A stretch of 63,682 nucleotides of DNA. It comes from Planctomycetota bacterium. GTDB taxonomy: Bacteria > Planctomycetota > B15-G4. Of this stretch, positions 1 through 15,192 are shown one piece after another (positions within the stretch are counted from its first letter, which is position 1; the number at the start of each line of letters is the position of its first letter). Made by a program: the position numbers and the translations under genes. The notes below the pieces were generated by a model that saw only the letters and a program-made list of their open reading frames with translations, searched no databases and had not been told where the DNA came from. Where the stretch lies: assembly GCA_038212275.1 (NCBI GenBank), contig JBBQUR010000025.1, positions 1 to 63,682 of the forward strand, written 5' to 3'.

Positions 1-141
1 CGCGGTCCGTCAGCCGGACTTGCTCGTGCTCTGGAGCCTCGGAGCGCGACCAGCGGCTGGATAGGAAGAGCCGGATGACGCGAGAGTGTCACGTCCGGTT
101 CCGTGAGAGCCTGAGGGTGAAACTCCCTTGGGCTACTCGAC
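1..141 (+). mobile_element. 3' end of a group II intron (domains V-VI; bacterial class D-like)
   Basis: 68-141 reads GAGCCGGATGACGCGAGAGTGTCACGTCCGGTTC (catalytic domain V hairpin), then CGTGAGAGCCTGAGGGTGAAACTCCCTTGGGCTACTCGAC (domain VI, ending AC). It follows the stop codon of an IEP-like tail. Confidence 0.9.
2..64 (+). CDS. C-terminus of group II intron reverse transcriptase/maturase (5'-truncated by window)
   Basis: Frame from position 2 gives AVRQPDLLVLWSLGARPAAG*. This resembles the P-x-L-F/L-x-H/L-W tail of En-less class D IEPs, and the stop lies just before domain V. Confidence 0.7.
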   Translation, partial: AVRQPDLLVLWSLGARPAAG

Positions 142-322
142 GTCAGCGCGGCCTCCACAGCATGACAATTCGCCTTCGGACGCGACGCCGATGGGGGTCG
201 TCAAGCGGGCGACGGGACTGCGATATCGCCAGAATCAACGAGACATTTCACCGCGAACAGACCATCTCCATGAATCCGGCTGACGATACACAGAGTTGTC
301 GACTCAAGCCGCGCGGCGGTAC
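142..322. repeat. Copy A of ~190-bp rve-transposon 3'-end unit (interrupted at its left by the group II intron)
   Basis: Ungapped alignment to 12480-12660, about 144/181 identical by manual count. On the minus strand the right part reads ...YRRAA*, like the transposase C-terminus. Confidence 0.9.
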
Positions 323-426
323 GTGTGACGAAGTCTCTCTCAGCGCGTGGGTTACTTTGCGGGGGTTACGTCACTCCGGACCGATGTCGCTGATAACCCA
401 ATCCAGAAATTCTCTGTTCGCAGCAG

Positions 427-1212
427 TCAGTCGCCGCGCTTGCGTGCCACGACGGCCACAGTGAGTGCGGTGAGTCGCCCCGCCCGCGTCGCCATGACAG
501 CCCGCGTGAGCCGATCCGCCGCCGTCTCCATCGCCCTCGGCAGCGGAGGCCGCTGAGGCAGCCTCACGCCGAGTCTCCCCATGCCCGCGCGCACACACCG
601 ATACGCCAGACTCGGGTGCATCCAGTCACCAAAGACATCGAGCACGTCGAAGCCCGCACTCGTCACCAGCGCCTGCAACTGCCCCGGTGTGTACTGGGTC
701 TCCCAGCCGGCAAACCAGCGGTCCGCCGCGATGAGTGTCTTCTTGATCAGGGTCCACGCATGAAACGTCTGGGGCACGTCCACCAACAGCATGCCGCCGG
801 GCCGCAGCAGGCGCCGGTTCTCGAGCAGCAACGGCATCGGATCGCGAAAGTGCTCGAGCAGCCCCTGGTGGTAGACGAGGTCGAAGCGGCCGTCGGCAAA
901 CGGCGTGTGCAGGCCATCGCCTTGGAGCAGGCACAGGCTGCCGGCCAGGGGAGCCGCTCGCGGCACCGCGAGGCCGCGCTCAATGAGCGCGAGCGCCTCG
1001 GCCGAGCTGTCCAAGGCGACGACGTGCGCCCCGCGCGCCGCCAGCGCGAGCGCATCGCGCCCGGTGCCCGGCCCGATCTCGAGCACGCGGCAGCCGGGCG
1101 TGAGGTGCGTCGCCAGACGTTCGACCAGCCGAGGGCTGGCTGCACCGAAGTCATCGGGCCGCGCGCGTGCGCGCCAGAACCGATCCCACGTGGCGACGTC
1201 GCTGACCCTCAT
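427..1212 (-). CDS. Class I SAM-dependent methyltransferase (Methyltransf_11-like)
   Basis: Motifs VLEIGPGTG, VVALDSS, QGDGLHTPFADGRFDLV and LLRPGG. Probable start MRVSD at 1212. Confidence 0.9.
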   Translation of the reverse strand: MRVSDVATWDRFWRARARPDDFGAASPRLVERLATHLTPGCRVLEIGPGTGRDALALAARGAHVVALDSSAEALALIERGLAVPRAAPLAGSLCLLQGDGLHTPFADGRFDLVYHQGLLEHFRDPMPLLLENRRLLRPGGMLLVDVPQTFHAWTLIKKTLIAADRWFAGWETQYTPGQLQALVTSAGFDVLDVFGDWMHPSLAYRCVRAGMGRLGVRLPQRPPLPRAMETAADRLTRAVMATRAGRLTALTVAVVARKRGD

Positions 1213-1325
1213 CGGGCGCCGAGCATAGCGGAGACTTGGCGACTCGTGAAAGCACAGCATCGGGCGCCTGTGGTAAATGTGTGCGCCTGACGGAACCAGT
1301 GCCGAGAGGCCGGGGCGGAGTGACG

Positions 1326-3953
1326 ATGGGGCAAGCAGGGTTGACGTTCTGGCAGCGGCGCTACCTCACGGCGTACTACAGGGACTGCGATGACGCGACG
1401 CTGGCGCTGGGGAGCGGTCTGTCCACGCTGCGCGTGACCGAGTACCTCGCGCGGGTGGGCGGCACGCGCTCGGCGGGCGACCTGAGGCGCATCGCGGCGG
1501 CGGGAGTGAAACCTGCCCCGGAGATGTTCACGCCGGAGACGGCACGCCGGGCAATGACCCGGCTGCAGACGCGGCCGCTCCGTGGGATCGATGGGCTTCT
1601 CATCGCAGCGATGTTTCTTGGGAGCGCGGTCCTCTACGCGCTGACCTGCGCGCGCACGGTGACCGGCGAGGATGCCGGCGAGTTGCTCGCTGCCGCGCAC
1701 GGCTTCGGTGTGCCGCACCCGCCGGGCTACCCGCTGTGGCTGCTGCTGTCCTGGGCCGCCGATCACGCCGTCCCGTGGGTGTCGGTGGCGTGGCGCGTCT
1801 CGATGGTTTCGGCACTCGCGTCGGCCGCCGCCAACGGGCTGTTCCTGGCCGTCCTGCTCAAGACGCTGCGCTCACGCCTTGCGGCCGTCACGGCCGCTGG
1901 CCTCTTCGCGGTCTCGCTGACGCACTGGACGCAGGCCGTGATCCCCGAGGTCTACGGCCTCAACACCTGTTTCATTGCGCTGCAGACGCTGCTGCTCGTG
2001 CGCCTCGCCGAGCGACACACCGCCGGCCGACTCCTCGCGCTGGCTGCCGTCAGTGGGCTTTCGCTCGCCAACCACACCTCGGCCGCGCCCCTCGGGGCGG
2101 TGTTCGCGCTGGGCGCGGCGCTCGTGGCCCCGGAGCTGCTGCGCTCGCCGCGCGTCGTGATCGGCGCGCTCGCCGCAGCCATCCTCCCGCTGGCACTGTT
2201 TCTGGTGCTGCCGCTGGCTGCGGCCCGCCACCCGTATGCCAACTGGGGCAATCCGGAGACCGCCGAGGCGCTCTGGAAGCACATCACGCGCGAGCAGTAC
2301 GCCGGCGTGCAAGCCGAGCAGCAGGCCGCTGGCGGCTACGACGACTACCTGGCCCGCCTCGCGATCATGACCCATTGGGCGACGCGGCAGTTTGGGTCGG
2401 GCTGGGTGTTGCTGCTCGCGGCGCTCGGCGTCCTCGGGCTGTTTCTGCGGCAGACCGGATTGTGGCTGGCCATGCTCGCGGTGGGCTGGATCTGCTCGGT
2501 GGGCGTCACGCAGTTCACGGCGTTTCCGTTCGAGCGCGAGCACCTCTACGCGGTGCAGATCTTCTGGATCCCGGCCTGGCTCGTGCTGGCGTGGTGGATC
2601 GGCGGGGGACTCGATCTGCTGCTGGACGGCATGCAACGCCTGCATGCCGGAGCGCGCAGGACGGCGCACGCCGTCGCGGCCGCCGCGTGCGTGGCGCTCG
2701 TGGCGTGGCCGGCCAGCGCGCACTACGCGACGGCGGATCGCAGCCGCACGACGCTCATCGCGGATTACGGTCGCGCGATCCTCGACGCCATGGACCCGGG
2801 CGCGCTGTACTTTCCCAGCAGCGATCACAGCACATTCTCAGTGCTCTACCAGCAGGGCGTGCTGGGCTATCGCACCGACGTCACCATCGCGGACAAGTAC
2901 GGCCAGCTCGACGAGTCGCTCGCCCTGCCACTGCTGGAGAGCGGCGAGCGGCAGCTCCTGAACGCGCTCCCGAGTGGCGGCCGGCGTGCGCTGCTGGAGT
3001 CGGTCCTGATCCGCAAATGGCCGGGCCCGGTCTACTGCGCCAACCGGCGCGAGCTGGGCGACATCCCGCAGCGCACGCTGCAGCCTGTCGGGCCGATTTA
3101 CAAAGTGATGACGGCGGACGAGGCCAAGGCCTGGTGGACCCCAGGGGCTCAGCGCGCCGCGCCGGGGCTGCAATCCTGGGATCGCTGCGCAGCACTCCTC
3201 GAGGTGGATGACCGCCAGCGCCTCGACTTCACGGTGCAGATGGTGCTGGCGGAGTTGCTCGGGATGCGCGGCTTCGCGTTGCTCGATGCCGGGCAGCTCG
3301 ACGAGGCGAAGCAGGTCTGGAGCCGGATCGAGGCCGACCTGGCGCCGCTCAAGCAGACCTTCAACAACATCGGCGCGGCCCTCGCCGAGCACGGCCAGCC
3401 CGAGCTCGCAGTGGCGTATTTCGCTGCGGCGCTTGCCGAAGATCCCCGCTACTTGCTGGCGCTGCGCAACGAGGCGCTCGTGCGCCGCGATCAAGGGCAA
3501 CGGCCGCTGGCAATCACGCTGCTGCGGCAGGCGCTGGAGGTCACGCCCGGCGAGCGCGTGCTGCGCTTGCAGCTGGCCCACCTGCTGGAGGACGACGACA
3601 AACTCCTCGACGCGCTGGCCGAGTACGAGACGTTGGCCGCCAGCGACGGTTCCGACCCCGTGCCGTGGCGCGATGCCGGACGCCTGCTCGAGCGCGGCGG
3701 TGACCTGCGCAAAGCCGAGCAGGCCTACGCGGAGAGCCTGCGCCTCGATCCCGGGCAGCAGGACGTGGCCGAACGGCTGCAGCGCCTGCGCCTGGGGCTC
3801 ACCGATCCCGGCGATGAAGCTGTCGCGCAAGCCGACAACGACCACGATCCGGAAAGCGCCGCGCTGCCGCGTTTGCCGCGCCTGCCGGGCGACCCGGTCG
3901 TTGGCCAGCGCTTTGACAGCATGGGCCACGTGGCCGGCCCCGGCCGCCCGTAG
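1326..3953 (+). CDS. DUF2723/TMEM260-like (GT117, GT-C fold) membrane glycosyltransferase with C-terminal TPRs
   Basis: Signature GEDAGELLAAAHGFGVPHPPGYPLW, WTQAVIPEVYGLN, GLSLANH and NWGNP. Multiple TM helices, followed by TPR-like repeats (FNNIGAALAEHGQPELAVAYFAAALAEDP). Confidence 0.88.
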   Translation: MGQAGLTFWQRRYLTAYYRDCDDATLALGSGLSTLRVTEYLARVGGTRSAGDLRRIAAAGVKPAPEMFTPETARRAMTRLQTRPLRGIDGLLIAAMFLGSAVLYALTCARTVTGEDAGELLAAAHGFGVPHPPGYPLWLLLSWAADHAVPWVSVAWRVSMVSALASAAANGLFLAVLLKTLRSRLAAVTAAGLFAVSLTHWTQAVIPEVYGLNTCFIALQTLLLVRLAERHTAGRLLALAAVSGLSLANHTSAAPLGAVFALGAALVAPELLRSPRVVIGALAAAILPLALFLVLPLAAARHPYANWGNPETAEALWKHITREQYAGVQAEQQAAGGYDDYLARLAIMTHWATRQFGSGWVLLLAALGVLGLFLRQTGLWLAMLAVGWICSVGVTQFTAFPFEREHLYAVQIFWIPAWLVLAWWIGGGLDLLLDGMQRLHAGARRTAHAVAAAACVALVAWPASAHYATADRSRTTLIADYGRAILDAMDPGALYFPSSDHSTFSVLYQQGVLGYRTDVTIADKYGQLDESLALPLLESGERQLLNALPSGGRRALLESVLIRKWPGPVYCANRRELGDIPQRTLQPVGPIYKVMTADEAKAWWTPGAQRAAPGLQSWDRCAALLEVDDRQRLDFTVQMVLAELLGMRGFALLDAGQLDEAKQVWSRIEADLAPLKQTFNNIGAALAEHGQPELAVAYFAAALAEDPRYLLALRNEALVRRDQGQRPLAITLLRQALEVTPGERVLRLQLAHLLEDDDKLLDALAEYETLAASDGSDPVPWRDAGRLLERGGDLRKAEQAYAESLRLDPGQQDVAERLQRLRLGLTDPGDEAVAQADNDHDPESAALPRLPRLPGDPVVGQRFDSMGHVAGPGRP

Positions 3954-3976
3954 GGCCCCTCCGGGGCCTCTCGTTT

Positions 3977-4402
3977 CTAGCCCTCCGCTTGGAGTTCGGG
4001 CGGGTCGCTCCGCGGCAGCACCAGCAGGCGAGCCGCGGGCCGGCTGCGGCGCTTGCGCTGCGAGCGCTTGGCCGCTGGTCTGTGATGCCAGTGCCAGACG
4101 TCGTGGTCGACTTGGGCGCGGAGCCAGTCGTGGGGCGCCAGGTCGAGGAGTCGCCCGAGGCGGCACGCCATGTCCACCGTCAGCGCGCGCCGTCCACAGA
4201 TGATCTGATTGATGCTGCGCAACGAGCATTTCAGGGCGCGGGCGGTGGCCGATTCGGACAGGCCGCGCCGGGCGAGCAGGCTGCCAATCGCGGCCCCGGG
4301 GTGGCCGGGTGAGGGCTCGCGCGGTGCTGCCCGGCGTGTGCGGGCCTTGCGCTTGAAGGAACTGTGGCCGCTGGCGGCCGTTTTCGATGGGCGAGGTGCC
4401 AT
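3977..4402 (-). CDS. higA: HigA-family XRE HTH antitoxin/regulator (orphan)
   Basis: HPG...LARRGLSESATARALKCSLRSINQIICGRRALTVDMACRLGRLL...WLRAQ matches the HigA pattern. Start at ATG 4402. Confidence 0.8.
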   Translation of the reverse strand: MAPRPSKTAASGHSSFKRKARTRRAAPREPSPGHPGAAIGSLLARRGLSESATARALKCSLRSINQIICGRRALTVDMACRLGRLLDLAPHDWLRAQVDHDVWHWHHRPAAKRSQRKRRSRPAARLLVLPRSDPPELQAEG

Positions 4403-4749
4403 GCGCGCTCCCCTGTGCTGGCGGTGGGTGAAGACCTTCCCGTAGACACAGCGAGCGAAACGGCTGGTGTGGGACAACAAAAATCGGGGCCGCCTGCGGA
4501 GGAGAAATCGGCGTCCGAGCATGTGTTGGGGGTGGGCATGCACAGAACCGCTTGGCACTCACAAGCGTCGAAGTATGGACGCGCGGCGTCCAAGTGAGTC
4601 GTTTCACACGGGAAATAACACAAGGTTTGGTGACAAGGAATTCTTGGCGTCGGACCCCCTTTCCGAAAGAAACGCGCGTAATCACCGAGAAAAATGTGTC
4701 GCTGAAACCATGACTTGGACGCCGCGCGTTCATAGACAAGCCGGTTGGT

Positions 4750-6138
4750 GTGCGCATAGAGTCCGACATCGCCTTGCGGGAGAGCGTGCGCGTGGTCGGA
4801 CGGGACGGCGTCAAACTCGGGAAAGAGCTGCATCGAGCGGCGCGTGAAGCAGTCGGCGTGCACGCCGACTGTGCACCGCGCGCGCTTCGGATCCTGCTGC
4901 TCAACGAGCGCTGCCATGCCCATCCGCTGTCGGGCGGCGCGGAGAGCCATCTGTTCGAGATCTTCTCGCGGCTCGCCGCGCGCGGCGTGTCGGTCGAGCT
5001 GCTGTGCTCGGGCTTCGCCGGGAGCGCGCCGCGTGACCTGCATCGCGGCGTGACGATCACGCGGCTCGGGACGCGGCTGTCGTTCTACGCCAAGGTTGCG
5101 GGCGAGGTCCGCCGTCGCGTGGCGGCCGGCGAGCTGGACCTGATCGTCGAGGCGCACAACAAGGTGCCGTTCCTGACGCCGCTCTACGCGGGCCGCGTCC
5201 CGGTGCTGGTGATCCACCATCACCTGCACGGGCTGACGGCGTTTCGGCAGGTCTCGCCATGGATCGCGGCCGCGTCGGTGGCGCTCGAGCGCACGATCCC
5301 GTGGGTCTACCGGCGCGTGCCGTTCCTCACGATCAGCAAGAGCAGCAAGTCGGACCTCATCCGGCGAGGCGTGCCCGAGGAGTCGATCGACGTGGTGCCG
5401 TGCGGGCTTGACCACGACGTGCACCGCGCGGCGCCGACGGCGGGACGGGCGCGGCTCGTGGTGTCGCTCGGGCGCCTTGAACCCTACAAGCGCATCGATC
5501 TGCTGCTGCGCTGCTGGCCTGCGGTCCTGGCACAAGTGCCCGACGCGCAGCTCGCCATCGTGGGCCGCGGACAAGAAGAGCGCCGGCTCCGGGAGCTGGC
5601 CGAGAAGCTGGGCATCGCCGACAGCGTCACGTTGACCGGGTTTGTGTCGGAGCCCGAGAAGGTCGCGTGGCTCCAGCGTGCCGCGCTCATGGTGCAGTGC
5701 TCGACCCGTGAGGGTTGGTGCCTGGGCGTCACGGAGGGGAATGCGACCGGCACGCCGGTCGTCGCGACCGATGTGCCGGGCCTCACCGACAGCGTGCAAG
5801 ACGGCGTGACGGGTATCTTGGTCCGCAAACCGGCTCCCGGGCCGCTGGCCGCCGCCATCGCCAAGCTGCTGCTCGACGAAGAGACGCGCGTGCGCCTGGC
5901 CCAGCGAGCGCTGTCCTGGTCGACCCATTTCGACTGGGAGGAGTCGGCCAGCGCCGTGCTCCGCGCGGCCCGCCGCGCGACCTCCCCGGCAGCCGAACCG
6001 GCCGCAGAACCGGCCGCAGAAGTGGCCTCGGCGCGCAGGCGCGCCGCTCCCCAACATTCTTCTGTCCGCCCCGCGCCGGCCCCGGCGCATGCACATCTCG
6101 TCCGTCCGGCCGCGCCGGTGGACGCAGGAGTCGTGTGA
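4750..6138 (+). CDS. Glycosyltransferase family 4 (GT-B)
   Basis: Motifs GGAESHL, LGRLEPYKRIDLL and EGWCLGVTEGNATGTPVVATDVPGL. The true start may be downstream (about 4858). The stop overlaps the Rhs start (TGATG). Confidence 0.9.
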   Translation: MRIESDIALRESVRVVGRDGVKLGKELHRAAREAVGVHADCAPRALRILLLNERCHAHPLSGGAESHLFEIFSRLAARGVSVELLCSGFAGSAPRDLHRGVTITRLGTRLSFYAKVAGEVRRRVAAGELDLIVEAHNKVPFLTPLYAGRVPVLVIHHHLHGLTAFRQVSPWIAAASVALERTIPWVYRRVPFLTISKSSKSDLIRRGVPEESIDVVPCGLDHDVHRAAPTAGRARLVVSLGRLEPYKRIDLLLRCWPAVLAQVPDAQLAIVGRGQEERRLRELAEKLGIADSVTLTGFVSEPEKVAWLQRAALMVQCSTREGWCLGVTEGNATGTPVVATDVPGLTDSVQDGVTGILVRKPAPGPLAAAIAKLLLDEETRVRLAQRALSWSTHFDWEESASAVLRAARRATSPAAEPAAEPAAEVASARRRAAPQHSSVRPAPAPAHAHLVRPAAPVDAGVV

Positions 6139-9100
6139 TGAACACTCTGCAACGCCGCCGTCGACTGGCCCCGGTGATCTGGCTGCTGATTTTCGGACTG
6201 GCCCTGCCGCCCGGTGCCATGACCTCCGTGTTCGCGGTGACCAACCGGCGCCTCAACACGCTCTCGCGCGACACCAAGCTCGAGACCTTCCGCAATCCGC
6301 AGTTCAGTGGGGCGCAGGGCAGCCGGTTCCTGGGGACCATGGGGCCGCAGGCCCTGGTCGGCTCGGGCGGCGACAACTTCAGTGACCCCGACAGCCGCGG
6401 CTACGGCAGCATCGCGGAGCCGGCGGCGCACTGGATCTCCTACAAGGGTCGCGTCGAGTGGACCGACAACGACCTGATGATGCCGGGCGTCGGCCTGCCG
6501 CTCATCTTCCAGCGCATCCATCGCGGCTCGGTGTCGAGCTATGACGGGCCCTTGGGTGCACAGTGGGAGTTCAACTGGAACAAGCGTTTCAAGTACGACA
6601 CTTCGGGCGGCGCCACACGGGCCTATTTCCACGAGCTCGGGCGGCGCGAGGAGTACCCCTACACCGGGAGCGCCTACACCTCGCCGATCGGGCGCTACGA
6701 CACGCTCGTGCGCACGGGCACGCCGGAGTACATCCGCACGGACCGCAGCGGTATCCAAGAGACCTACGCGCAGGAGCCGGCGGACGCGACCTGGTTTCGG
6801 CTCAAAGAGATCAAGGACCTCAACGCCAACACGCTGAGCTTCAGTTACGACAGCAACAGCCTGCTGACGAAGGTCACCGACACGCTGTCCCGCCACACCA
6901 CGCTGGCCTACGACGGCAACGACCGCATCACGAAAATCACGGACAGCGCCAGCCGCGAGTGGCTCTACGCCTACGACGGCAGCAACCGACTCAGCTCGGT
7001 GCGCACCCCGACGGTGGATGAGATCGGTACGGACGACGATTACACCTCGGGCAAGACCACGACCTACAAGTACGACAGCAGCGATCGCCTCACGGAGGTC
7101 GCGCGTCCGGGAGACGGCGGCACGGGCAAGTGGCTCTGGGCCTACGACGGCAGCGGGCGCATCACGAAGGAAACGCGCGCCGGCAACGACCTTTCGCTGA
7201 CCTACGACGACACCAACGCCAAGGTCACGGTGGTCGATCGCGAAGCCAACCAGACGGTCTATTGGTACGACTCGGGGCACGAGGGCAACCTGATCACCAA
7301 GCGGCAGGTGTACTGGGATGCCAGCAACTACTACGAGTCCACGTTCGCGTACGACGCGGCGGGGAACGTGACCAACGCGATCTTCCCGAAGGGGAACCGC
7401 GTGGGCTACACCTTCGACGGCAGCGGCAACGTGCTCACAGTGGAGTTCAAGAAGGACGGCAGCGACGGCGCGCCGCTCAAGTGGATCTACGCTTGGGCCA
7501 GCAACGCCCGGCTCTCGACGTTGAAGGATCCCAACGGCAACGTGTGGGACCACGACTACGACGGCGCCGGGAATCTGGTCACCAAGACGGCGCCGGCTGT
7601 GACGCTGCCCAACTCGACGCACGGCACGATCCGCGAGCTGTGGGCCTACAACGGCAGTGGGCAGGTGACGCGGTACACCGATCCGGTGGGGACGTTCACG
7701 GACACGACCTACAGCACGGTGAACAGCAAGTCGGCCTACGCGAACGCAGTGACGCGCGACTCGGCAGGGCTGGCGCTGATCACGCAGTACGCCTACGGCG
7801 GTGCGGGCAACGTGACTTCGGTCACGGATCCCAACGGCAACGCGACGACCTACACGGTCAACGCGCTGAACCAGGTCATCGCGACGGTCGAGCCGCTGTC
7901 GGTGACGCGCAAGACGCACTACGACAGCAATGACCGGGTGATCCAGACCGAAGTGAGCAACGACAGCACGGTGGGCAACGGCTGGTTTGTGACGGATCAC
8001 GACTACGACGCTCAGGACAACCTGACCCGGGTGCGGGCCGATCTCACCGGCAGCACGAGGATCACGACGGCCTATGCGTTCGACAAGAACGACCGGCTGA
8101 CGACGGTGACGAGCCCGGTGGGCAATGAGACGACTTACGCCTACGACGTGCGCAACCTGCAGACGTCCGTGACGCGCAAGGCGGCGAGCAGCCCCGACGA
8201 CGCCATCACGGCGACGACCTACGATGCCAACGGGCTGCGGATCACGACCACCAGTCCCCGCGGCTATCTCACGCTCTACGCCTACGACGGCTACGACCGG
8301 CTGACGAAGACCACGCAGCCCGAGGGCGAGTACACCACGTCCGTATTTGATGGCAACGGCAACGTGGTCACGAGCAGCCGTTACAACGTGGGCGCGACGC
8401 AGCTGGCGCAGACGGTGATGAGCTACGACCAGGCCAACCGGCTGTACCAGACGGATGTGCTCGCGAAGCAGGCCGACCTCTCCACGAACATCGGCGACGG
8501 CGTGCAGACCAAGACGATCCACCGCGATGAGGCCGGGCGCGTGCTCGAGCACAGCGGCGACATCTGCGGCTGCAGCAATTATGTGCACGTCTACGACGCG
8601 GTGGGGCGGCAGGTCACGAGCAAGGACCCGATGGGGGCCACGGACGGCACGCGCAATCTCGTGCTGTCGCTGTACGACAAGAACGGTAATGTGACCAAGT
8701 CCACGCGCAAGGAGCGCAGCCAGGACACGGGGGTGGAAGCCGACAAGGACATCGTCACCGAGATGGTGTTCGACGCCAGAAACCGCATGGTGACGCGCAA
8801 GGAGCGGCTCGACGTGTCCACCACGATGGACACGGTCTACAGCTACGGCCTGCGGGATCAGGTCACGAAGGTCGTGGACGGCAACGGCGACGAGCGCCGC
8901 ATCGAGCACAACGAGCAGCTCTGGAAGGCCAAGGACATCCTCGAGAACGGCGCGGCCGACGTGATCACGGAGTACAGCTACGACAGCGACGGCCGGCTGG
9001 TCACGTACCTCGCGAAGAACAGCACCACCGGCGACCAGGACACGGTCTACACCTACGACAAGCTGGATCGCGTGGTGACGACGACCTGGCCCGATGCAGG

Positions 9101-11168
9101 CACCCACGTCAACACGTACGACAAGGCGAGCAACCGGCTCTCGACGACCGACCCGAACGGCACGGTCGTGGTGTGCGCGTACGACAAGGACAACCGCCTG
9201 ACGTCACGCGCGATGACGCTGGCCAGCAACGTCGTGGGCGCGACGTCGCACGGCTTCGGCTACGACGGCCTGGGTCGCATGACCTCTGCGGACAGCAACG
9301 AGGGCGGGGCGTTCAGCACGGTCATCGAGCGCACCTACAACACCTTGGGCAAGCTGGAGACCGAGAAGCAGGTCATCGATGGCTACAATTCCGGCAACGG
9401 GCGCACGATCAGCTACGCCTACGACGTGGAGGGCGACCGGACGTCCACGACCTACCCGGTGGGTGGGACGGTGATCAGCTACACGCGGGATGCCTTGGAC
9501 CGGGTGGACAAGATCAGCCGCGGCAGCGCAGAGGTGGTGGACTACACGTGGAGCGGCAGCCGGGTCATCAAGAGCAGCTATCCGGGCAGCCACACGACGA
9601 TGCTGTATGACGGGTACGGCCGGCTCACGGACATGCACCACAAGGACACGTCGTCGGGGAATAGCTTGGCGCGGTTCACGTACGGCTACGACGCCAGCAG
9701 CCAGATCATCGCCTGGGACAAGTATTACTACGACGATGTCCAGAACACCCGGATTACCGGCGCCAATCTGGATGAGGGCGGGCAGTACGGCTACGACGGG
9801 GCCAAGCGGCTGGTGACCGTGCTGCGCGGCATCGCTACCGCGAACATCAGCAACACGATTTCAGCCAATCTGGCGGCGTCGCAGGCAGCCTACCGGAACA
9901 TGGTGGAGTACAAGCTGGATCAGACCGGAAACCGGATGACCCGCCAACTGGACGGCTCAAACGACGTGACGTACGCTCACAACGACGTGAACGAGATGAC
10001 CACTGAAGGCGCAACGACCCTGACCTACAACGCCAATGGCGCGTGGACGGGGACCAGCGACGAATACCGCTACACGTGGAACGACCAGTTTGGGCAGTAC
10101 ATCAAGGCGGGGTCACCGGCCGTGACGCACACGTGGCACTACGACGCGTTGGGCCGACGAGTCCAGTTCAACGACAGTGCTAACCCGACGCGTGTGCAGC
10201 GGTACTATTACGACGGCGACCAGATGGTCGAGGTCGCGCGCTGGAGCGGGTCGGCTGAGACGGCGCTGAAGCAGTTTGTTTTCGGGGACCGGATCGATGA
10301 CTTGGTCATGTACGTGGACGTCGCGGGCAGCTTGTCGTACTACGCGCACAAGGACCATCTCGGGTCGGTGCAGGTGCTCGTCAATGGGAGCGGGGCGATC
10401 CAGGAGGGCTACCGCTACAACGAGTGGGGCGCGACGACGATCGTGGACAGCTCGTTCGCCAAGCTTACCACGACGCTGACATCACCCGTGGGAAACCCGC
10501 ATCGGTACACAGGGCGCGAGCAGCACAACTCGGTCGGTGGATATGGCGATGATTGGTACTACGTAAGGGCGAGGGAGTATCGGGCTGCAGCCGGCCGCTT
10601 TATTTCGCCTAGCGAGCATGGCTATGGACTACGTCGCTATGATAATAATGTGAATAGACCGACGCCGTATGGCTCCGCAGGCACGTATGCGGACGGAACT
10701 GAGTTTAATGCGGACGCGGACGAAAAGAAATGCAAAATTGACCCGTTGCCCCTACCTAGTGGTCCTAGTGGTGCCTGTGTAAATCCCGCATGGGTCGAAT
10801 GGGCAAATGCTTATCAGCAATGCGTGAACACTTCGGCGGGAACCTGTCATGATACATATCAGCACAGTTATGAGCACTTTAAAGGTCTCCTAGATACTGA
10901 CTGTCACAAGGCAGACCATACAATTGGTGCATTTATCGTGTATTCAGTCATTCCTGGAATTCTTTCCGCGGCTGCAAGTGCAGTCTCTGGGCCAATCGGG
11001 GGGATTGCAGTAGTGGCTGCATATAAGGCAGTCACTACTCCTGCTTACGACCTTTGCATGGCCGAGGGGCACAGTAACGTTAAAAACATGGCATGCGCGA
11101 CAAAAATTATATGCTGTGAGGGACTGAAAGAAGAGCCCCCTATATTTCTTTCAGACTCATGCAAGTGA
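6138..11168 (+). CDS. Rhs/YD-repeat polymorphic toxin-like protein with N-terminal signal peptide and DUF6531-like domain
   Basis: MNTLQRRRR plus a hydrophobic signal; DLMMPGVGLPLIFQR...GPLGAQW (DUF6531-like); dozens of YD repeats; core YYAHKDHLGSV...YRYNEWG...RYTGRE; low-GC C-terminal tip. Confidence 0.92.
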   Translation: MNTLQRRRRLAPVIWLLIFGLALPPGAMTSVFAVTNRRLNTLSRDTKLETFRNPQFSGAQGSRFLGTMGPQALVGSGGDNFSDPDSRGYGSIAEPAAHWISYKGRVEWTDNDLMMPGVGLPLIFQRIHRGSVSSYDGPLGAQWEFNWNKRFKYDTSGGATRAYFHELGRREEYPYTGSAYTSPIGRYDTLVRTGTPEYIRTDRSGIQETYAQEPADATWFRLKEIKDLNANTLSFSYDSNSLLTKVTDTLSRHTTLAYDGNDRITKITDSASREWLYAYDGSNRLSSVRTPTVDEIGTDDDYTSGKTTTYKYDSSDRLTEVARPGDGGTGKWLWAYDGSGRITKETRAGNDLSLTYDDTNAKVTVVDREANQTVYWYDSGHEGNLITKRQVYWDASNYYESTFAYDAAGNVTNAIFPKGNRVGYTFDGSGNVLTVEFKKDGSDGAPLKWIYAWASNARLSTLKDPNGNVWDHDYDGAGNLVTKTAPAVTLPNSTHGTIRELWAYNGSGQVTRYTDPVGTFTDTTYSTVNSKSAYANAVTRDSAGLALITQYAYGGAGNVTSVTDPNGNATTYTVNALNQVIATVEPLSVTRKTHYDSNDRVIQTEVSNDSTVGNGWFVTDHDYDAQDNLTRVRADLTGSTRITTAYAFDKNDRLTTVTSPVGNETTYAYDVRNLQTSVTRKAASSPDDAITATTYDANGLRITTTSPRGYLTLYAYDGYDRLTKTTQPEGEYTTSVFDGNGNVVTSSRYNVGATQLAQTVMSYDQANRLYQTDVLAKQADLSTNIGDGVQTKTIHRDEAGRVLEHSGDICGCSNYVHVYDAVGRQVTSKDPMGATDGTRNLVLSLYDKNGNVTKSTRKERSQDTGVEADKDIVTEMVFDARNRMVTRKERLDVSTTMDTVYSYGLRDQVTKVVDGNGDERRIEHNEQLWKAKDILENGAADVITEYSYDSDGRLVTYLAKNSTTGDQDTVYTYDKLDRVVTTTWPDAGTHVNTYDKASNRLSTTDPNGTVVVCAYDKDNRLTSRAMTLASNVVGATSHGFGYDGLGRMTSADSNEGGAFSTVIERTYNTLGKLETEKQVIDGYNSGNGRTISYAYDVEGDRTSTTYPVGGTVISYTRDALDRVDKISRGSAEVVDYTWSGSRVIKSSYPGSHTTMLYDGYGRLTDMHHKDTSSGNSLARFTYGYDASSQIIAWDKYYYDDVQNTRITGANLDEGGQYGYDGAKRLVTVLRGIATANISNTISANLAASQAAYRNMVEYKLDQTGNRMTRQLDGSNDVTYAHNDVNEMTTEGATTLTYNANGAWTGTSDEYRYTWNDQFGQYIKAGSPAVTHTWHYDALGRRVQFNDSANPTRVQRYYYDGDQMVEVARWSGSAETALKQFVFGDRIDDLVMYVDVAGSLSYYAHKDHLGSVQVLVNGSGAIQEGYRYNEWGATTIVDSSFAKLTTTLTSPVGNPHRYTGREQHNSVGGYGDDWYYVRAREYRAAAGRFISPSEHGYGLRRYDNNVNRPTPYGSAGTYADGTEFNADADEKKCKIDPLPLPSGPSGACVNPAWVEWANAYQQCVNTSAGTCHDTYQHSYEHFKGLLDTDCHKADHTIGAFIVYSVIPGILSAAASAVSGPIGGIAVVAAYKAVTTPAYDLCMAEGHSNVKNMACATKIICCEGLKEEPPIFLSDSCK

Positions 11169-11223
11169 GGTGATCCGTTGTTTGCCTGTGAATAAATCAC
11201 CTTAGGGGCTTTCCGCGACCGCT

Positions 11224-11263
11224 GTTTGGTTGGGAATGGCCAGGTTTGGTGGGGAATGGCCAG
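11224..11263. repeat. 20-bp tandem direct repeat x2
   Basis: GTTTGGTTGGGAATGGCCAG followed by GTTTGGTGGGGAATGGCCAG (1 mismatch). Confidence 0.85.
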
Positions 11264-11566
11264 TCGCCGGTGGGTCGTCGATGAAATCTTAGATCACCGG
11301 AGATGAAAAGGTGCCTAGACGCCAACTTGCTTGGTCAAGTAAATCGTGGGAGTTCCAGTTCGTGAGAGTTATAATTCGAGCTGCCGGTCTGTTGACATAC
11401 GCTGCGGCGCTTTCGCTGAAGTATGGCCGCGACAGTGCTGATACTACGGTCCGCAGATTTTCTTCGTCGGCAGCCTTGCATGGCCTTGGCCGGCCGTGGG
11501 CGCAGTCCATATTGTAATATATGGTAGAAATTATGGGACTTCTCCAACAACCACAGGAACAATGAT

Positions 11567-12172
11567 ATGCGCCGTCGATTTCCACAGTTCGCGACGCTAG
11601 TGTTGGCCGGGATGACTCTTCTCTGCCAGAGTTGCGCGCACCTCATGGCGTACGGCGAGGATCGCGTGCGCGACATTTCTGACGTTATCGATGTCCGGTA
11701 CGGCACCGGCTTCGGACTTGGCGTAAGCGTGCAGTGGACCGAACTTCTTGGCACCGGCCTCGGTTGCTCAACGGAGTGGTACCAACGACAGTGGTATGGC
11801 CGGAAGTCAATCGAAGTCCGCGACGGCCTTTTCGCGCAGGCGCTCATCTTCGGCGTTGATGGGGACTATGTGCGGCGCGAGGCGCAAGGCGCAAATTACT
11901 GGGAATGCATGTCATCCACCGGCAACACGACTTGGTTCATTTTTAGGCTCACCGGCATATCCAGGGAAGGGTGGGGCAACGAGGAGTGGTTTACTAAGCC
12001 GGGAGGCGTTGCTCCGAGTGCTGAGTTCGCTCGCATCGGCGGGGCCGTCTTTCTCCCGGGCGTGAATGGAGGGATCTACGTCAACCTCGGGGAGGTCATC
12101 GATTTCGTCTCTGGTTTGTTCGGCTACGACCCGATGAATGACGATGACTACCCCAAGTTCTCCACTGTGTGA
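11567..12172 (+). CDS. Hypothetical lipoprotein, candidate Rhs immunity protein
   Basis: Basic N-terminus, hydrophobic stretch and lipobox-like LCQSC. Lower GC, and the first convincing gene after the Rhs tip. Confidence 0.65.
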   Translation: MRRRFPQFATLVLAGMTLLCQSCAHLMAYGEDRVRDISDVIDVRYGTGFGLGVSVQWTELLGTGLGCSTEWYQRQWYGRKSIEVRDGLFAQALIFGVDGDYVRREAQGANYWECMSSTGNTTWFIFRLTGISREGWGNEEWFTKPGGVAPSAEFARIGGAVFLPGVNGGIYVNLGEVIDFVSGLFGYDPMNDDDYPKFSTV

Positions 12173-12262
12173 TGCTTTGGTTGTGCTGCTGTGGGTGTCG
12201 TAGTTCAATAGTCGCGCGGTATCGAAACGAGGTCGTCTGATGGTCCAAGGAGAGGCTACGGC

Positions 12263-12468
12263 TGTCCCTCCCGAGAACTCCGCGCGATCCTCGGAGCATG
12301 ACAATTCGCCTTCGTACGCGACGCCGACGGGGGGCGTCAAGTAGTCGCGAGCCGTCCGTAACCACCGCGAATGCCGCGCGCGCGGCATCAGCCTGCGCAG
12401 TGGGCGGAGCATCTCCATGAATCCGACTGACGATTCACAGAGTTGTCGAGTTAAGCCGCGCGGCGGTA
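12263..12468. repeat. Copy B of ~190-bp unit, with intact TGT terminus and a non-homologous 68-nt core
   Basis: Begins TGTCCCTCCCGAGAACTC. Shares GCATGACAATTCGCCTTCG...GTCAAG and CATCTCCATGAATCC...CACAGAGTTGTCGA...GCCGCGCGGCGGTA with copies A and C. Confidence 0.9.
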
Positions 12469-12660
12469 GGTCCCGAGAAGTCAGCGCGAGTCTCGGAGCA
12501 TGACAATTCGCCTTCGTACGGAACGCCGAGTGGGGTCGTCAAGCGGGTTACAAGGCCGCGAGATCGCTCAGATCGACCAGGCCTTTCACTGTGCACAGAC
12601 CATCTCCGTGAATCCAACTGGCGATTCACAGAGTTGTCGAGTCAGGCCGCGCGGCGGTAC
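12469..12660. repeat. Copy C of ~190-bp unit, contiguous with transposase 3' end
   Basis: Tandem to copy B; its right end overlaps the transposase codons YRRAA-stop (12642-12659). Confidence 0.9.
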
Positions 12661-13670
12661 TCGTGGTGCAACCCACCGAGTACCGGCACGGAAATGACTT
12701 CTTCGACGGGAGTGGTCTCCCGTGTGCTCGGCTCCGGCGCGTCGCCATCGAGTGACTGATGGCAGCGACTCGAATTGTAATAGCGCTGGAATTCTCGGAT
12801 CAGGGCCAGCAAGTGTCGCTCGCCCGTGACGATCACATGGTCCGTGCACTCGCGGCGCACCGTACCGATCACTCGCTCCACGAAAGGGTTGGTCCAGGGA
12901 GCGCGCCGACCACTCAGCAGCTCTCGCAGTCCTATCGCACGGATCTCGTCGCGGAACGTGTGGCCGTAGATGCCGTCGCGATCGCGCAGCAGGTATTTCG
13001 GCTCGGTCCCGTCGCCGGGGAACGCCTCCCGGATCTGCCGTGCCGTCCACTGCGCGGTGGGGTGGGCCGTCACGCCGACATGCACGATCCGTCGTCGGTC
13101 ATGGCTCAGGACCACGAACGCGTAGAGCATCTTGAAAGTGAGTGTCGGCACCACGAAGAAGTCGCACGCCGCGGTCACCTTCATATGATTGCGGAGAAAC
13201 GTGGACCATCGCTGGCCCTTCTCTGGGTCGCGTCGCTTGACCATGTACTTGTCCACGGTGGACTCGACGACGTTGTGCCCGAGCCGTACGAGCTGCTGCT
13301 GGATCATGGGCGCACCCCAGGTCACGTTCTCGACGGACATGCGCCGGATGAGTCGCATCAGCTTCCAGCCGATCGACGGCGCCCCGCGCTTCGCCGTCCG
13401 GGACTTGCGCGCCCAGTACCAGGCCGCGCCCTTGCGGTGCCAGCGGATCAGGGTCTCGGGCTTCACGATGAGCAAGGTGCTCTTCCAGTCGGCGAGCAGG
13501 CGGTGCATCAAGATGAGAAATGCCCGGTCGCTGTCCTCGATCCGGGGCCGCGACACGCTGCGCTTCAGGATGATGACCTGCTGCCGCAGGACGGCGTTCT
13601 CGAGCATCAGCTTCTGGCGGTCTTGCAGCGCTGCGCGCAGCATCCCGAAGAGCACGGTGGCGGTAAGCAT
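12642..13670 (-). CDS. Integrase-core (rve) DDE transposase, IS3/IS481-superfamily-like
   Basis: LENAVLRQQ, IVKPETLIRWHR, NVTWGAP, catalytic AACDFF / LLRDRDGIYG / NPFVERVIGTVRREC, and C-terminal GGLHHEYRRAA. Confidence 0.92.
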   Translation of the reverse strand: MLTATVLFGMLRAALQDRQKLMLENAVLRQQVIILKRSVSRPRIEDSDRAFLILMHRLLADWKSTLLIVKPETLIRWHRKGAAWYWARKSRTAKRGAPSIGWKLMRLIRRMSVENVTWGAPMIQQQLVRLGHNVVESTVDKYMVKRRDPEKGQRWSTFLRNHMKVTAACDFFVVPTLTFKMLYAFVVLSHDRRRIVHVGVTAHPTAQWTARQIREAFPGDGTEPKYLLRDRDGIYGHTFRDEIRAIGLRELLSGRRAPWTNPFVERVIGTVRRECTDHVIVTGERHLLALIREFQRYYNSSRCHQSLDGDAPEPSTRETTPVEEVISVPVLGGLHHEYRRAA

Positions 13671-13754
13671 GGGGCGGGAGGGTAGCGAGGGGCGCTCGTT
13701 CGTGCGAGCCGGACGCCCTCAGTGGGCGGCTTGCGTCGCAGTCCCACGCCGCCG

Positions 13755-14048
13755 TTATCGGAGCACGTCAGCGATGTCGCGGTATCCGCTGATCACACGA
13801 GCAATCTGAATCGGCTCGACTTCCGCCAGGTACACGATCAGGTAGCTGTGAACGGGCCAGAAGCGCACGTCGTCCTCGGCCACGTCGCGCCGGACGTGGC
13901 CCATGCGCGGCATGTCCGCCAACTGCACCATCGCCGCGTCGAGGTCGGCCAAGACGCGCTGAGCTGCCGAAACACTGTCCTGTGAGATGAAGTCGACGAT
14001 CTCGTCGAGATCGCGCTCGGCATCCTCGGACAGCGCATAACGCCTCAC
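13755..14048 (-). CDS. parE: RelE/ParE-family toxin
   Basis: YALSEDAERDLDEIVDFI...LADMPRMGHVRRD...YLIVY...IARVISGYRD; overlaps the antitoxin stop. Confidence 0.92.
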   Translation of the reverse strand: MRRYALSEDAERDLDEIVDFISQDSVSAAQRVLADLDAAMVQLADMPRMGHVRRDVAEDDVRFWPVHSYLIVYLAEVEPIQIARVISGYRDIADVLR

Positions 14049-14317
14049 CGACTCGGGCGATCCTTCTCGAGCTTGGCGAGTCGCGCCTGCAGGCGGGAGA
14101 TCACCTCATCGCCACTCTTGAGGCGTCCTGCCTTCGCAGAGGTGACTCCTTTGGCGACCTGCTGCCGGAGCTCGGCCACGCGAGTCTCGCGCAACTTGTC
14201 GCTGTCGGCGAGCAGCCGCAGCGCCTCGCGCACCACCTCGCTCGCGGAGGTGTACATGCCCGAAGCGACCTTGTCCTCGACGAGCTTGGCGAGTTCCGGG
14301 GTCAGTGAGACATTCAT
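14045..14317 (-). CDS. parD: ParD-family antitoxin (RHH)
   Basis: MNVSLTPEL...VASGMYTSASEVVREALRLL. Confidence 0.93.
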   Translation of the reverse strand: MNVSLTPELAKLVEDKVASGMYTSASEVVREALRLLADSDKLRETRVAELRQQVAKGVTSAKAGRLKSGDEVISRLQARLAKLEKDRPSR

Positions 14318-14404
14318 GGAGGAGACTCTAGCGCCGATAGCCAGTTATGTCAAAGCCTGTTATCGGCTGAGCGACCGTGCATCCGAAGGCCATCTGATGC
14401 GAAT

Positions 14405-14710
14405 TCACTCGGAGTCGTGCAGGGTCTCCGCAAGGTCCCGCCAGCCGCTTACGACGCGCAGGATCTGCAGTGGCTCCGTCTCGGGCCGGTACACGATCAA
14501 GAAACTGTGCACGGCCTAGAAGTGGACCGGCCGGGGCGTGAGATCCTCGCGGGCGTGGCCCGTGGCCGGCATCGCTGCCAATTGCTGCGCTGCAGCGAGC
14601 AGGTCTGCCCGCACTCCTTCGGCGCGTCGGAGGCTCCCGCTTTCGGCGACGTAATCCAGGATCTCGGCGAGGTCGGCCTCGGCGAGCAGCGACAGCCGAA
14701 AGGAACTCAC
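14405..14710 (-). pseudogene. parE: ParE toxin with in-frame amber stop
   Basis: ...PRPVHF*AVHSFLIVYRPETEPLQILRVVSGWRDLAETLHDSE*. The TAG at 14516-14518 aligns with the Trp in the paralog (VRFWPVHSYLIVY). Confidence 0.88.
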
Positions 14711-14985
14711 TTGCGCGGTTTGCGCCGCGCGTCGAGCCGCTCTTCAAGCCGCTTGAAGGCCTCCTCGCCGTCCACGAGCTGGCCGTTCGTGGCCTGATCC
14801 CAGCCGGCATCGATCTTTCGGCGCACCTCGTCGCGCCATGCCTGGAAGCGCCGCTGTTCGTTGGCCTCGTGATCCATCAGCAACCGGATGCCTTCTCGGA
14901 CCACTTCGGCGGCCGTCTGGTAGCGACCGGTCTTCACCTTGTCCTCGATGAAGCGGACCTGCTCGTCGGTGAGAGAAACGTTCAT
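14707..14985 (-). CDS. parD: ParD-family antitoxin
   Basis: MNVSLTDEQ...VKTGRYQTAAEVVREGIRLL; paralog of 14045-14317. Confidence 0.92.
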   Translation of the reverse strand: MNVSLTDEQVRFIEDKVKTGRYQTAAEVVREGIRLLMDHEANEQRRFQAWRDEVRRKIDAGWDQATNGQLVDGEEAFKRLEERLDARRKPRK

Positions 14986-15192
14986 GGCGGGAGGGTCGCT
15001 CCGATGTCCAGATATGTCCACTTCTGGCCATCGACTGTCGCTGGCCAGGACTTGGGGGTAAGGTCAGGCATGGCAGGTGGGCCCGGCGGAAGAGGAGCCC
15101 GTCGGGAGTGCTGCTACGCGGGTGGAAACTCTCCCGGCATCGCGCCGCCGCGGGTTGTTCGAGCTCGACAGCGGCGCGGCGCCTCAAGGCGG

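Follow-up and report, generated by a model that had tools for sequence, protein, structure and literature searches.

The window analysed here, a stretch of 63,682 nucleotides from a Planctomycetota bacterium (contig JBBQUR010000025.1), contains an intact transposase gene (12642-13670, minus strand) and three short repeats, units A (142-322), B (12263-12468) and C (12469-12660), which are homologous and lie in one shared orientation. The contig begins within a group II intron, the 3' end of which occupies positions 1-141, and the roughly 12 kb between units A and B include genes for a GT-C-like glycosyltransferase and an Rhs protein. The first-pass annotation had placed three same-orientation copies at these positions, and a repeat search and a whole-genome blastn search agree that they are there.

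The transposase is encoded by a single open reading frame whose translation gives 342 uninterrupted amino acids with an rve_3 integrase core, the sole Pfam match (PF13683, E 3.4e-12). The NCBIfam matches are to IS3, IS481 and IS21, the first at 70.5 bits (cut-off 160) and the second at 68.9 bits (equivalog cut-off 224), both below the cut-off. Relatives are 336-343 amino acids long, and dN/dS is ~0.15 against four close relatives and 0.12-0.17 across all pairs. The genome (4.65 Mb, 91% complete) holds this one intact copy and seven fragment matches. A scan for relatives with the single protein as query found none; when rerun with an alignment as query, it returned 80 loci. The rve_3 IS family is very large, with more than 6,900 proteins matched and relatives in many phyla, and in PGAP and other sources these relatives are annotated only as ‘integrase core domain-containing protein’ or ‘transposase InsO family’. 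A plasmid search for relatives gave generic annotations only, and a literature search retrieved comparators and found no paper on the family itself.

In the repeat search, 139-327 matches 12477-12665 at 79% identity over 189 nt, and the left and right blocks of the units each form a three-copy repeat family (83 nt at 71-84% and 76 nt at 82-86%, respectively). Whole-genome blastn aligns A with C at 81.7% over 186 nt (E 1e-42), A with B at 74.7% over 178 nt (E 3e-24) and B with C at 74.8% over 206 nt (E 2e-28). Translation confirms that the right block reads YRRAA-stop on the minus strand, which is the tail of the transposase frame. Units B and C are directly adjacent, and a contig from an independent second sequencing run (X2) bridges their junction, covering 12425-12713 with zero differences; the tandem is thus not an assembly artefact. 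Pairwise divergence among A, B and C is about equal, so the tandem is not accounted for by a recent local duplication, nor can a succession of events be read from it. A small ORF within the unit was considered and rejected, since 1- and 2-nt gaps between the aligned units disrupt all frames.

Unit A (minus strand) comprises the last five codons of the transposase, the 3' non-coding region and the inner part of a right inverted repeat, the tip of which is missing because the repeat is interrupted by the group II intron. The intron end (1-141, plus strand, domain V/VI) is recognised by Rfam RF00029 at 66-141, with 58.1 bits against a gathering score of 40 (E 1.9e-9), and its insertion point lies in the inverted-repeat part of the unit. 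An identical 141-nt intron end, with the same final base, is present on contigs C4 and C12, where the DNA that follows it is unrelated. The low-coordinate edge of unit A, at 142, is where the intron ends and is not a point of decay. A genome pattern search for the missing outer half of the repeat returned only chance matches and unit B itself, and an all-against-all comparison of contig ends recovered many other repeats and no continuation past the contig end at A. On the other side of the unit, positions 323 to ~357 (minus strand, alignment A5) have ..GAAGTC and AGCGCG in common with the start of C, separated by a 6-nt insertion, and no homology beyond AGCGCG. With moderate confidence, these ~30 nt are probably the stub of a further IS right inverted repeat (323-357), which would adjoin A as the repeat of C adjoins B.

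Unit B (minus strand) begins at the Tyr codon of the transposase tail. Its right inverted repeat is complete, with a tip, TGTCCCTCCCGAGAACTC at the low-coordinate end, that matches the family consensus drawn from 29 clean copies; the unit carries the TGT-starting terminal sequence TGTCCCTCCCGAGAAC. The 18-bp palindrome reported earlier in its variable spacer (12371-12388) is exact, both on reading the sequence and as an inverted self-match, and is absent from the aligned position in relatives. Unit C supplies the 3' non-coding region and right inverted repeat (12469-12641, minus strand) of the resident IS copy, its tip reading ..GGGACCTACC where the closest relative reads ..GGGACCCACA. The stop-proximal conserved block of C (12595-12633, minus strand) contains a hairpin at 12604-12633, found in both MFE and centroid folds, and then a GGTCTGT motif at 12595-12601. 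A motif of the form G[GA]TC[CT][GA][TC] occurs no more than 95 nt past the stop codon in 23 of the 74 relatives listed and, on a by-eye reading of the listing, 30-46 nt past the stop in ~14 of those 23, mostly relatives with at least ~54% identity. Upstream of the gene, positions 13671-13716 (minus strand) hold the 5' leader and probably the degenerate left end of the resident IS, which is not clearly recognisable. Homology on this side, seen in alignment A4 with the relatives L031 and L034, extends ~46-50 nt 5' of the ATG, at which point both relatives have (C/T)TGTC.. in place of the GCGTCC of the window; the boundary is accordingly uncertain. The sequence CTACCCTCCCGCCCC is conserved immediately before the ATG, where the CTACCCTCCCG box lies.

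In relatives of the 342-residue transposase, ~135-260 nt of non-coding DNA follow the stop codon and end in a conserved right inverted repeat, ...TTTTCGGGAGGGACA, which is mirrored by a left repeat, TGTCCCTCCCGAAAA. The terminus ..TTTTCGG(G/T)AGGGACA, or a variant of it, lies ~170-210 nt past the stop in all 11 of the family-level relatives listed, and many of these also have the mirror-image TGT(G/C)CCTCCCGAAAAC, 72-145 nt upstream of the ATG. When only loci that pass the tip patterns and reach at least 16 of 25 positions are counted, there are 29 copies, from several phyla, whose inverted-repeat pairs match at 16-21 of 25 positions and all start with TGT; the elements measure 1124-1413 bp. 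In close relatives, with transposases 82-84% identical, the unit is present and can be aligned over its full length. Against family-level relatives (transposase identity of 68% or less), blastn of the units finds no match outside the window's own locus, and homology at that distance is detectable only as short terminal motifs.

Each unit is an IS right end. The first-pass annotation had read the units as transposase 3' ends, from an element of the rve (DDE) kind whose termini are of the TG(T) type, a reading upheld by the 29 TGT repeat pairs and by the presence of the terminus in relatives across phyla; it had also allowed that they might be simple IS debris, and a 3' non-coding region followed by a right inverted repeat is indeed standard in those relatives. 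The units are very probably right-end segments of a ~1.3-kb IS481/IS3-like IS, and as such ordinary mobile-element debris rather than a new RNA or cassette system. The IS itself would consist of one rve_3 DDE transposase gene between 25-bp terminal inverted repeats beginning with TGT, with ~135-260 nt separating the stop codon from the right repeat.

This layout resembles that of the IS481 family in its single rve-type DDE frame of ~340 codons without a frameshift, its length and its TGT inverted repeats, but the score lies far below the IS481 cut-off and the long 3' non-coding region is a trait of the family described here. IS3 elements have two overlapping ORFs with a -1 frameshift, whereas there is one ORF here and, again, a score below the cut-off. 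In PMC10045372, the transposases of IS3, IS481 and the IS1202 group are described as resembling one another, and IS481 target duplications are given as 2-15 bp, mostly 6 bp. Neither a 6-bp duplication nor any other consistent one was seen among 25 copies of the present family: 20 of them had none of at least 4 bp, and the other five gave short matches (4-6 bp) once the boundaries were moved by as much as 3 nt; duplications of 2-3 bp are indistinguishable from chance. As a result, the insertion chemistry and the exact tips of the IS can be given only provisionally.

Extra right tips in the same orientation are found up to 1 kb downstream in four of 49 distinct copies. There are no inverted tips downstream and no upstream tips in the same orientation, one inverted tip lies upstream, and a reversed-sequence control gave none, from which it follows that pile-ups of right ends recur in the family. 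IS30 inserts at its own inverted repeats, and head-to-tail dimers of IS elements of the IS3, IS30 and IS256 type occur. The arrangement in the window is like that of such nested or tandem elements in that a right repeat lies head-to-tail against the sequence of another copy. It is unlike them in that the junction partner is the transposase tail and not a left repeat, and no intact dimer is seen.

The seven units that were aligned are 72-88% identical in the proximal block and 79-89% identical in the distal one, rising to 97-99% for L031u2, L032 and L033, which are near-identical metagenome copies. The core between the blocks is a different matter. Units A and C match at 32 of 49 positions, unit B and L031u1 at 31 of 59, and other pairs at ~30%, pairs of metagenome copies aside. 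The core of B, described earlier as unrelated, is not wholly so, being weakly homologous to that of L031u1, a metagenomic relative. The conserved flanks diverge by 11-28%, less than the transposase genes of the window and of relatives, which differ by 40-46% at synonymous sites; core divergence equals or exceeds the synonymous rate. To judge from these rates, the variable core behaves as an unconstrained spacer. It would separate two selected blocks: a distal one formed by the terminal repeat and ~40 nt of subterminal sequence, cis-acting and under selection while copies are active, and a proximal one formed by the transposase tail, the hairpin and the GGTCTG motif, which may likewise act in cis.

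A quite different meaning had been proposed for this pattern, namely that the 3' region encodes a structured non-coding RNA with a variable segment. Used by the transposase and with that segment guide-like, such an RNA would be laid out like the bridge or seek RNA of IS110/IS1111 or the omega RNA of IS200/605. It is true that a non-coding region of ~135-260 nt is a conserved family trait, that its two blocks evolve more slowly than synonymous sites, and that one hairpin is retained, in which two closely related sequences differ from the rest at both members of a single base pair. Folding, however, is no better than that of shuffled sequences (z-scores of 0.17 for the transposase strand and -0.83 for the other strand, against 200 shuffles), covariation is negligible, the RNAalifold term of +1.19 kcal/mol being a penalty, and the proximal motif is limited to nearer relatives. 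An Rfam 15 scan of positions 1-15000, with E up to 1, gave only group II intron matches at 65-141 and nothing in the units. Nor does the variable core match its own flanks better than those of other loci: in a simple exact-match test on 25 copies, the longest spacer match averaged 6.80 nt in a copy's own flanks and 6.87 nt in those of other loci. L031u2, L032 and L033 share 57-60 of 60-61 core positions and yet lie in three different flanks, so near-identical cores occupy different insertion sites. IS110/IS1111 elements, with their bridge or seek RNA (PMC11187229), are alike in being ISs with a sizeable non-coding region beside the transposase gene. They differ in having a DEDD transposase and an RNA with loops complementary in sequence to the target and the donor. 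The enzyme in the window, by contrast, is of the rve DDE type, neither DEDD nor TnpB-type, and acts with ordinary terminal repeats, and the spacer shows no flank match or structural signal. A guide RNA of this kind is thus highly improbable.

How the units came to be truncated is less straightforward. Six other truncated copies have scattered breakpoints. The second copy at L031 breaks at transposase residue ~295; at L033, a stub retains the last ~100 nt, and in L033:1-144 residue ~127 is fused to the last ~70 nt; the copy at C15:117648 has an internal deletion, that at C15:121317 is ~78 nt long, and that at C28:28568 has a tandem-repeat core and ends ~40 nt short of the stop. Units A and B, on the other hand, start within a few bases of one point, the Tyr codon of YRRAA, and each has IS right-repeat sequence immediately before it. 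A breakpoint common to A and B is not predicted by plain random decay. A search for the tail motif in 123 fetched loci and the whole genome gave 41 matches, 39 of them tails of full genes on a by-eye reading of the translations; A and B are the only solo copies.

One explanation would be that the end of the transposase gene, its last codons (TACCGCCGCGCGGC), stands in for a left end, making A and B non-autonomous, MITE-like elements of ~200 bp, and that the transposase sometimes excises or copies the segment from the tail to the right repeat, with head-to-tail joining as in IS circle or dimer junctions. The left boundary of A and B, common to both and directly adjoining right-repeat sequence, would fit, and 9 of 14 positions of the tail (counted by eye) agree with the GC-rich region at the left end of the closest relatives, but a match of this size is weak in DNA of 70% G+C and the unit start is unlike the family repeat consensus. 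MITEs have inverted repeats at both ends, target duplications and many dispersed copies, whereas the unit has a right repeat only, its other end being transposase tail, and no target duplications are seen for it. The genome has just two such units, full-length and solo, alongside partial pieces with other boundaries, and a search of the other loci gave no more. These observations make a mini-element an unlikely account.

The position of A and B on either side of ~12 kb of glycosylation and Rhs genes had led to the further suggestion that repeated right ends form a site of cargo capture or accretion. They would then bracket and mobilise the intervening DNA, as in one-ended transposition with alternative right ends. 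The right ends do all point in one direction, a left end near 13716 and the right end of A could in principle define a 13.6-kb unit, and right-end pile-ups recur in the IS family, as described above. Against this, window positions 1332-13706, which include the glycosyltransferase, Rhs and transposase genes, are collinear with 21391-9267 of contig C113 in G006, a genome of another genus, where there is no counterpart of A. Over 30 kb of that contig, two right-end copies lie beside the transposase and none at the far side. In a further genome, G004, the Rhs core and the transposase are kept at the same spacing. Collinearity ends near 1330, before a methyltransferase gene and A, and the repeat of A is itself broken by the intron, with its outer flank beyond the contig. 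A cargo-capture cassette is not supported by this synteny and must be regarded as most improbable. Contigs from the sequencing runs contained no credible joint between copies, all of the joints listed having only 21-25 letters on the shorter side, too few to bear on excision.

The same comparison bears on the place of the resident copy at the Rhs locus. The transposase and right-end remnants are found at the variable end of this locus, that of the toxin tip and immunity genes, in three genera of one planctomycete family, and short same-orientation right-tip stubs are present at the orthologous loci in G004 and G006 as well. At the locus the transposase has a complete or almost complete reading frame, and it has diverged roughly in step with RpoB. 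The transposase could be more than a passing parasite here, either as a master copy that has persisted for long and inserts time and again at its own right end or as an enzyme recruited for turnover of the Rhs tip and immunity region, although this is unlikely. In E. coli, H-repeat (ISAs1-type) elements occur inside Rhs loci. The parallel is that the variable distal end of an Rhs locus, in three genera in the present case, holds an IS-like transposase gene, but the transposase families differ, and a functional link between transposase and Rhs would be conjectural in both cases.

Read as IS debris, C is the right end of the resident copy with its intact transposase gene, and B the remnant of an older, diverged copy directly outside the end of C. 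In a likely history, whose order is conjectural, a copy inserted into the tail of another or beside it, and the body of the older copy was then lost by recombination or by an adjacent deletion made by the transposase. Unit A would be another solo right end, adjoined by the stub of a further end and later struck by the group II intron.

Conserved flanks around a variable middle, beside a transposase gene, can mimic a guide RNA or a cassette; here the pattern would reflect selection on IS ends around a neutral spacer. The analysis also describes how a very large, poorly classified rve_3 IS family is built and how its elements end, and it documents one IS copy that has stayed in synteny with an Rhs locus in different genera, where pile-ups of right ends recur. 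Should the transposase at this locus prove to be a master copy or a recruited enzyme, it would work at the two conserved blocks of the 3' region, the stop-proximal and the distal one.

Three units of about 190 bp, A (142-322), B (12263-12468) and C (12469-12660), had been described in the same orientation by the first-pass annotation, and all three were recovered at these positions. A repeat search of the window aligned 139-327 with 12477-12665 at 79% over 189 nt and returned both flanking blocks as three-copy repeat families. In a search of the whole 4.65-Mb genome, A and C matched at 81.7% over 186 nt (E 1e-42), with A/B and B/C at about 75% (E 3e-24 and 2e-28, respectively). A contig of a second sequencing run agrees with the window at every base of 12425-12713, so the tandem arrangement of B and C is real. 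The right-hand block had been read, correctly, as the YRRAA tail of a transposase: the minus-strand ORF at 12642-13670 encodes 342 amino acids ending in YRRAA, of which A and B retain the last codons only. The low-coordinate end of B is the exact terminus of the family, TGTCCCTCCCGAGAACTC, and thus the unit is the ordinary 3' non-coding region of an insertion sequence (IS) together with its right inverted repeat. What was called the left block is right repeat plus subterminal sequence, and the right block is transposase tail plus post-stop sequence. A, B and C are very probably ordinary IS right-end remnants, the element being of a known kind and poorly classified.

The transposase has an rve_3 integrase core (PF13683, E 3.4e-12). 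The closest known elements are IS481-type ISs, which like this one carry only one rve ORF, measure about 1.3 kb and have TGT ends, although the transposase falls under the curated NCBIfam cut-offs for both IS3 (70.5 versus 160) and IS481 (68.9 versus 224). The element is not of the IS110/IS1111 kind. No consistent target duplication was found for copies of the family; for IS481 members, a published account gives duplications of 2-15 bp, mostly 6 bp (PMC10045372).

The family is very large, with 6,919 of 8,000 scored candidates matching at E <= 0.001; its proteins are mostly of 336-343 aa, many of them on contigs of 1-2 kb. Matches at E <= 1e-30 occur in 19 of the 41 genomes searched (that of the window and 40 related genomes), and relatives are encoded at 580 of the 608 places hit by a pattern search of species-representative genomes, under record titles naming Planctomycetota, Acidobacteriota, Myxococcota, Rokubacteria, Proteobacteria and others. 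All 11 family-level relatives whose post-stop DNA was inspected share the terminus ..TTTTCGG(G/T)AGGGACA, in this or a variant form, some 170-210 nt after the stop, and many carry its mirror image, TGT(G/C)CCTCCCGAAAAC, at 72-145 nt upstream of the ATG. Where a right tip was found, the first one mostly stands about 135-260 nt past the stop. A scripted search identified 29 copies of 1124-1413 bp bounded by 25-bp inverted repeats with 16-21 positions matching, a count that takes in only loci passing the chosen tip patterns. Directly before the ATG (13671-13690) is a box, CTACCCTCCCGCCCC, conserved at the same place in relatives and resembling the inverted-repeat core TGTCCCTCCCG; it is a candidate internal, autoregulatory transposase-binding site. 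Two related genomes have this transposase clustered, with three to seven copies, full or partial, within 6-16 kb (G005:C30:3085-9322; G007:C3:430320-445905). Several members or fragments also adjoin tRNA genes, at C7:167647-168300 of the window's own genome (CAT anticodon) and in loci L003 and L010, which may point to a preferred kind of site in some lineages.

The middle of the unit had been described as a swappable core, unrelated in B. The unit is also present in four close relatives from a metagenome, whose transposases are 82-84% identical. In an alignment of seven units, the proximal (stop-side) block is 72-88% identical and the distal (right-repeat-side) block 79-89%, with values up to 97-99% among the near-identical metagenome copies L031u2, L032 and L033. 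Transposase synonymous sites differ by 40-46% between the window and relatives (dN/dS 0.12-0.17 over all pairs), so the flanks evolve more slowly than neutral sequence, as expected of cis-acting IS ends. The core diverges at or above the synonymous rate: A and C match at 32/49 positions, B and the metagenome unit L031u1 at 31/59, and other pairs, excluding those among metagenome units, at about 30%. Some 12 nt present in other units are missing from A and C. B carries a lineage variant of the core rather than a swapped-in module. Elsewhere in the genome, at C28:28568-28800, a decayed right-end unit has a spacer grown to about five tandem repeats of about 21 nt.

A structured RNA with a variable segment, also proposed for the unit, was not borne out, nor was a guide. 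Rfam gave no match within any unit, even at E values as high as 1, unit C folded no better than shuffles on either strand (z 0.17 and -0.83), and the RNAalifold covariation term for the seven units was +1.19 kcal/mol. L031u2, L032 and L033 have 57-60 of 60-61 core positions in common, yet their flanks differ. Across 25 copies, the longest exact match of a spacer to its own flanks averaged 6.80 nt, against 6.87 nt for the flanks of other loci. A single robust hairpin lies directly after the stop; in two closely related sequences, one of its pairs has both partners changed. In nearer relatives only, a hairpin and a GGTC(T/C)G motif occur at a fixed distance after the stop, and we read the two as a putative subfamily cis element. 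Because the aligned units carry 1-nt and 2-nt gaps, a conserved small ORF in the unit was ruled out.

The common breakpoint noted for A and B stood, but it does not extend to other truncated copies. Both units start at the transposase Tyr codon and are directly preceded by right-repeat sequence, B by the repeat of C and A by a stub of about 30 nt at 323-357. The tail-codon pattern, searched in the 123 loci collected and in the whole genome, gave 41 matches, of which 39 are full-gene tails by reading of the translations; only A and B are solo. The coincidence is real. Random breakpoints had been named as a refuting condition for the special reading, and six further truncated copies are each broken at other places: the second copy of L031 at transposase residue ~295; a terminal stub of ~100 nt in L033; residue ~127 joined to the last ~70 nt at L033:1-144; an internal deletion at C15:117648; ~78 nt at C15:121317; and the copy with the tandem-repeat core at C28:28568, which stops ~40 nt short of the stop codon. 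The shared boundary could go back to a single ancient junction, copied afterwards, or mark a site preferred in this lineage, at the palindrome GCCGCGCGGC. The three units are about equally diverged from one another and so show no order of origin.

On its left, A is cut off by a group II intron (RF00029, 58.1 bits), whose 3' end forms the edge of the unit. The same end (1-141 in the window) is found at C4:1-141 and C12:748-888 of this genome, with the same last base and different downstream DNA. The intron is multi-copy and, in the window, is inserted into the inverted repeat of A; since the contig starts inside it, the outer repeat half of A and its flank lie outside the data. The tip of C reads ..GGGACCTACC versus ..GGGACCCACA in the closest relative, and the resident copy has a degenerate left end. 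Judging from this, the resident copy may no longer be mobile by means of its own ends, and the intact tip of B may serve instead.

The 12 kb between A and B, first taken for cargo bracketed by them, encodes a methyltransferase, a GT-C-like/TPR protein, an Rhs protein and unassigned ORFs. Window positions 1332-13706 are collinear with 21391-9267 of G006:C113, from a related genome of another genus, through the GT-C gene, Rhs and the transposase, and this collinearity is lost near 1330, short of A. Over 30 kb of that contig, only two right-end copies turn up, both beside the transposase. Another relative, G004 (C42; L121 6390-10820), retains the Rhs core and transposase at the same spacing. This stretch is an old gene neighbourhood, not cargo enclosed by A and B. 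Beyond the transposase, a ParE/ParD toxin-antitoxin pair (13755-14317, minus strand) precedes a neighbour gene. In metagenome contig L034, which has the window's upstream neighbour at 81% nucleotide identity, that gene is only 84 nt from the transposase, and the pair therefore looks inserted in the window. A ParD gene also lies about 2 kb upstream of the transposase copy in G001. Transposase identity to the window (G001 68%, G012 65%, G004 64%, G006 59%, G007 57%) roughly tracks that of RpoB (91%, 87%, not found, 89% and 84%, respectively), which fits long residence; the alternative is recurrent re-insertion.

Among 49 distinct copies, counted where a tip was recognised and without duplicates of a tip, four have extra same-orientation copies of the 22-nt tip within 1 kb downstream. 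The corresponding numbers were zero inverted downstream, zero same-orientation upstream, one inverted upstream and zero in a reversed-sequence control. Stubs of 6-24 nt of inverted-repeat tip also sit directly outside real tips, and some copies have them at both ends: in the left flanks of L020, L022, L058 and L089, and in the right flanks of L004, L048 and L086, where they follow at 24 nt (L004, L048) and 51-124 nt (L004, L086). A comparison is IS30, which targets IS ends.

The placement of the transposase at the Rhs locus is conserved. In three genera it is found at the variable end of the locus, about 2.1-2.5 kb beyond the conserved part of the Rhs gene, and right-end stubs are piled up there in each; H-repeat elements similarly sit in the Rhs loci of E. 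coli. Right-end pile-ups recur in the family, and they would arise if a copy inserted close to a resident right end and one of the two bodies was then lost.
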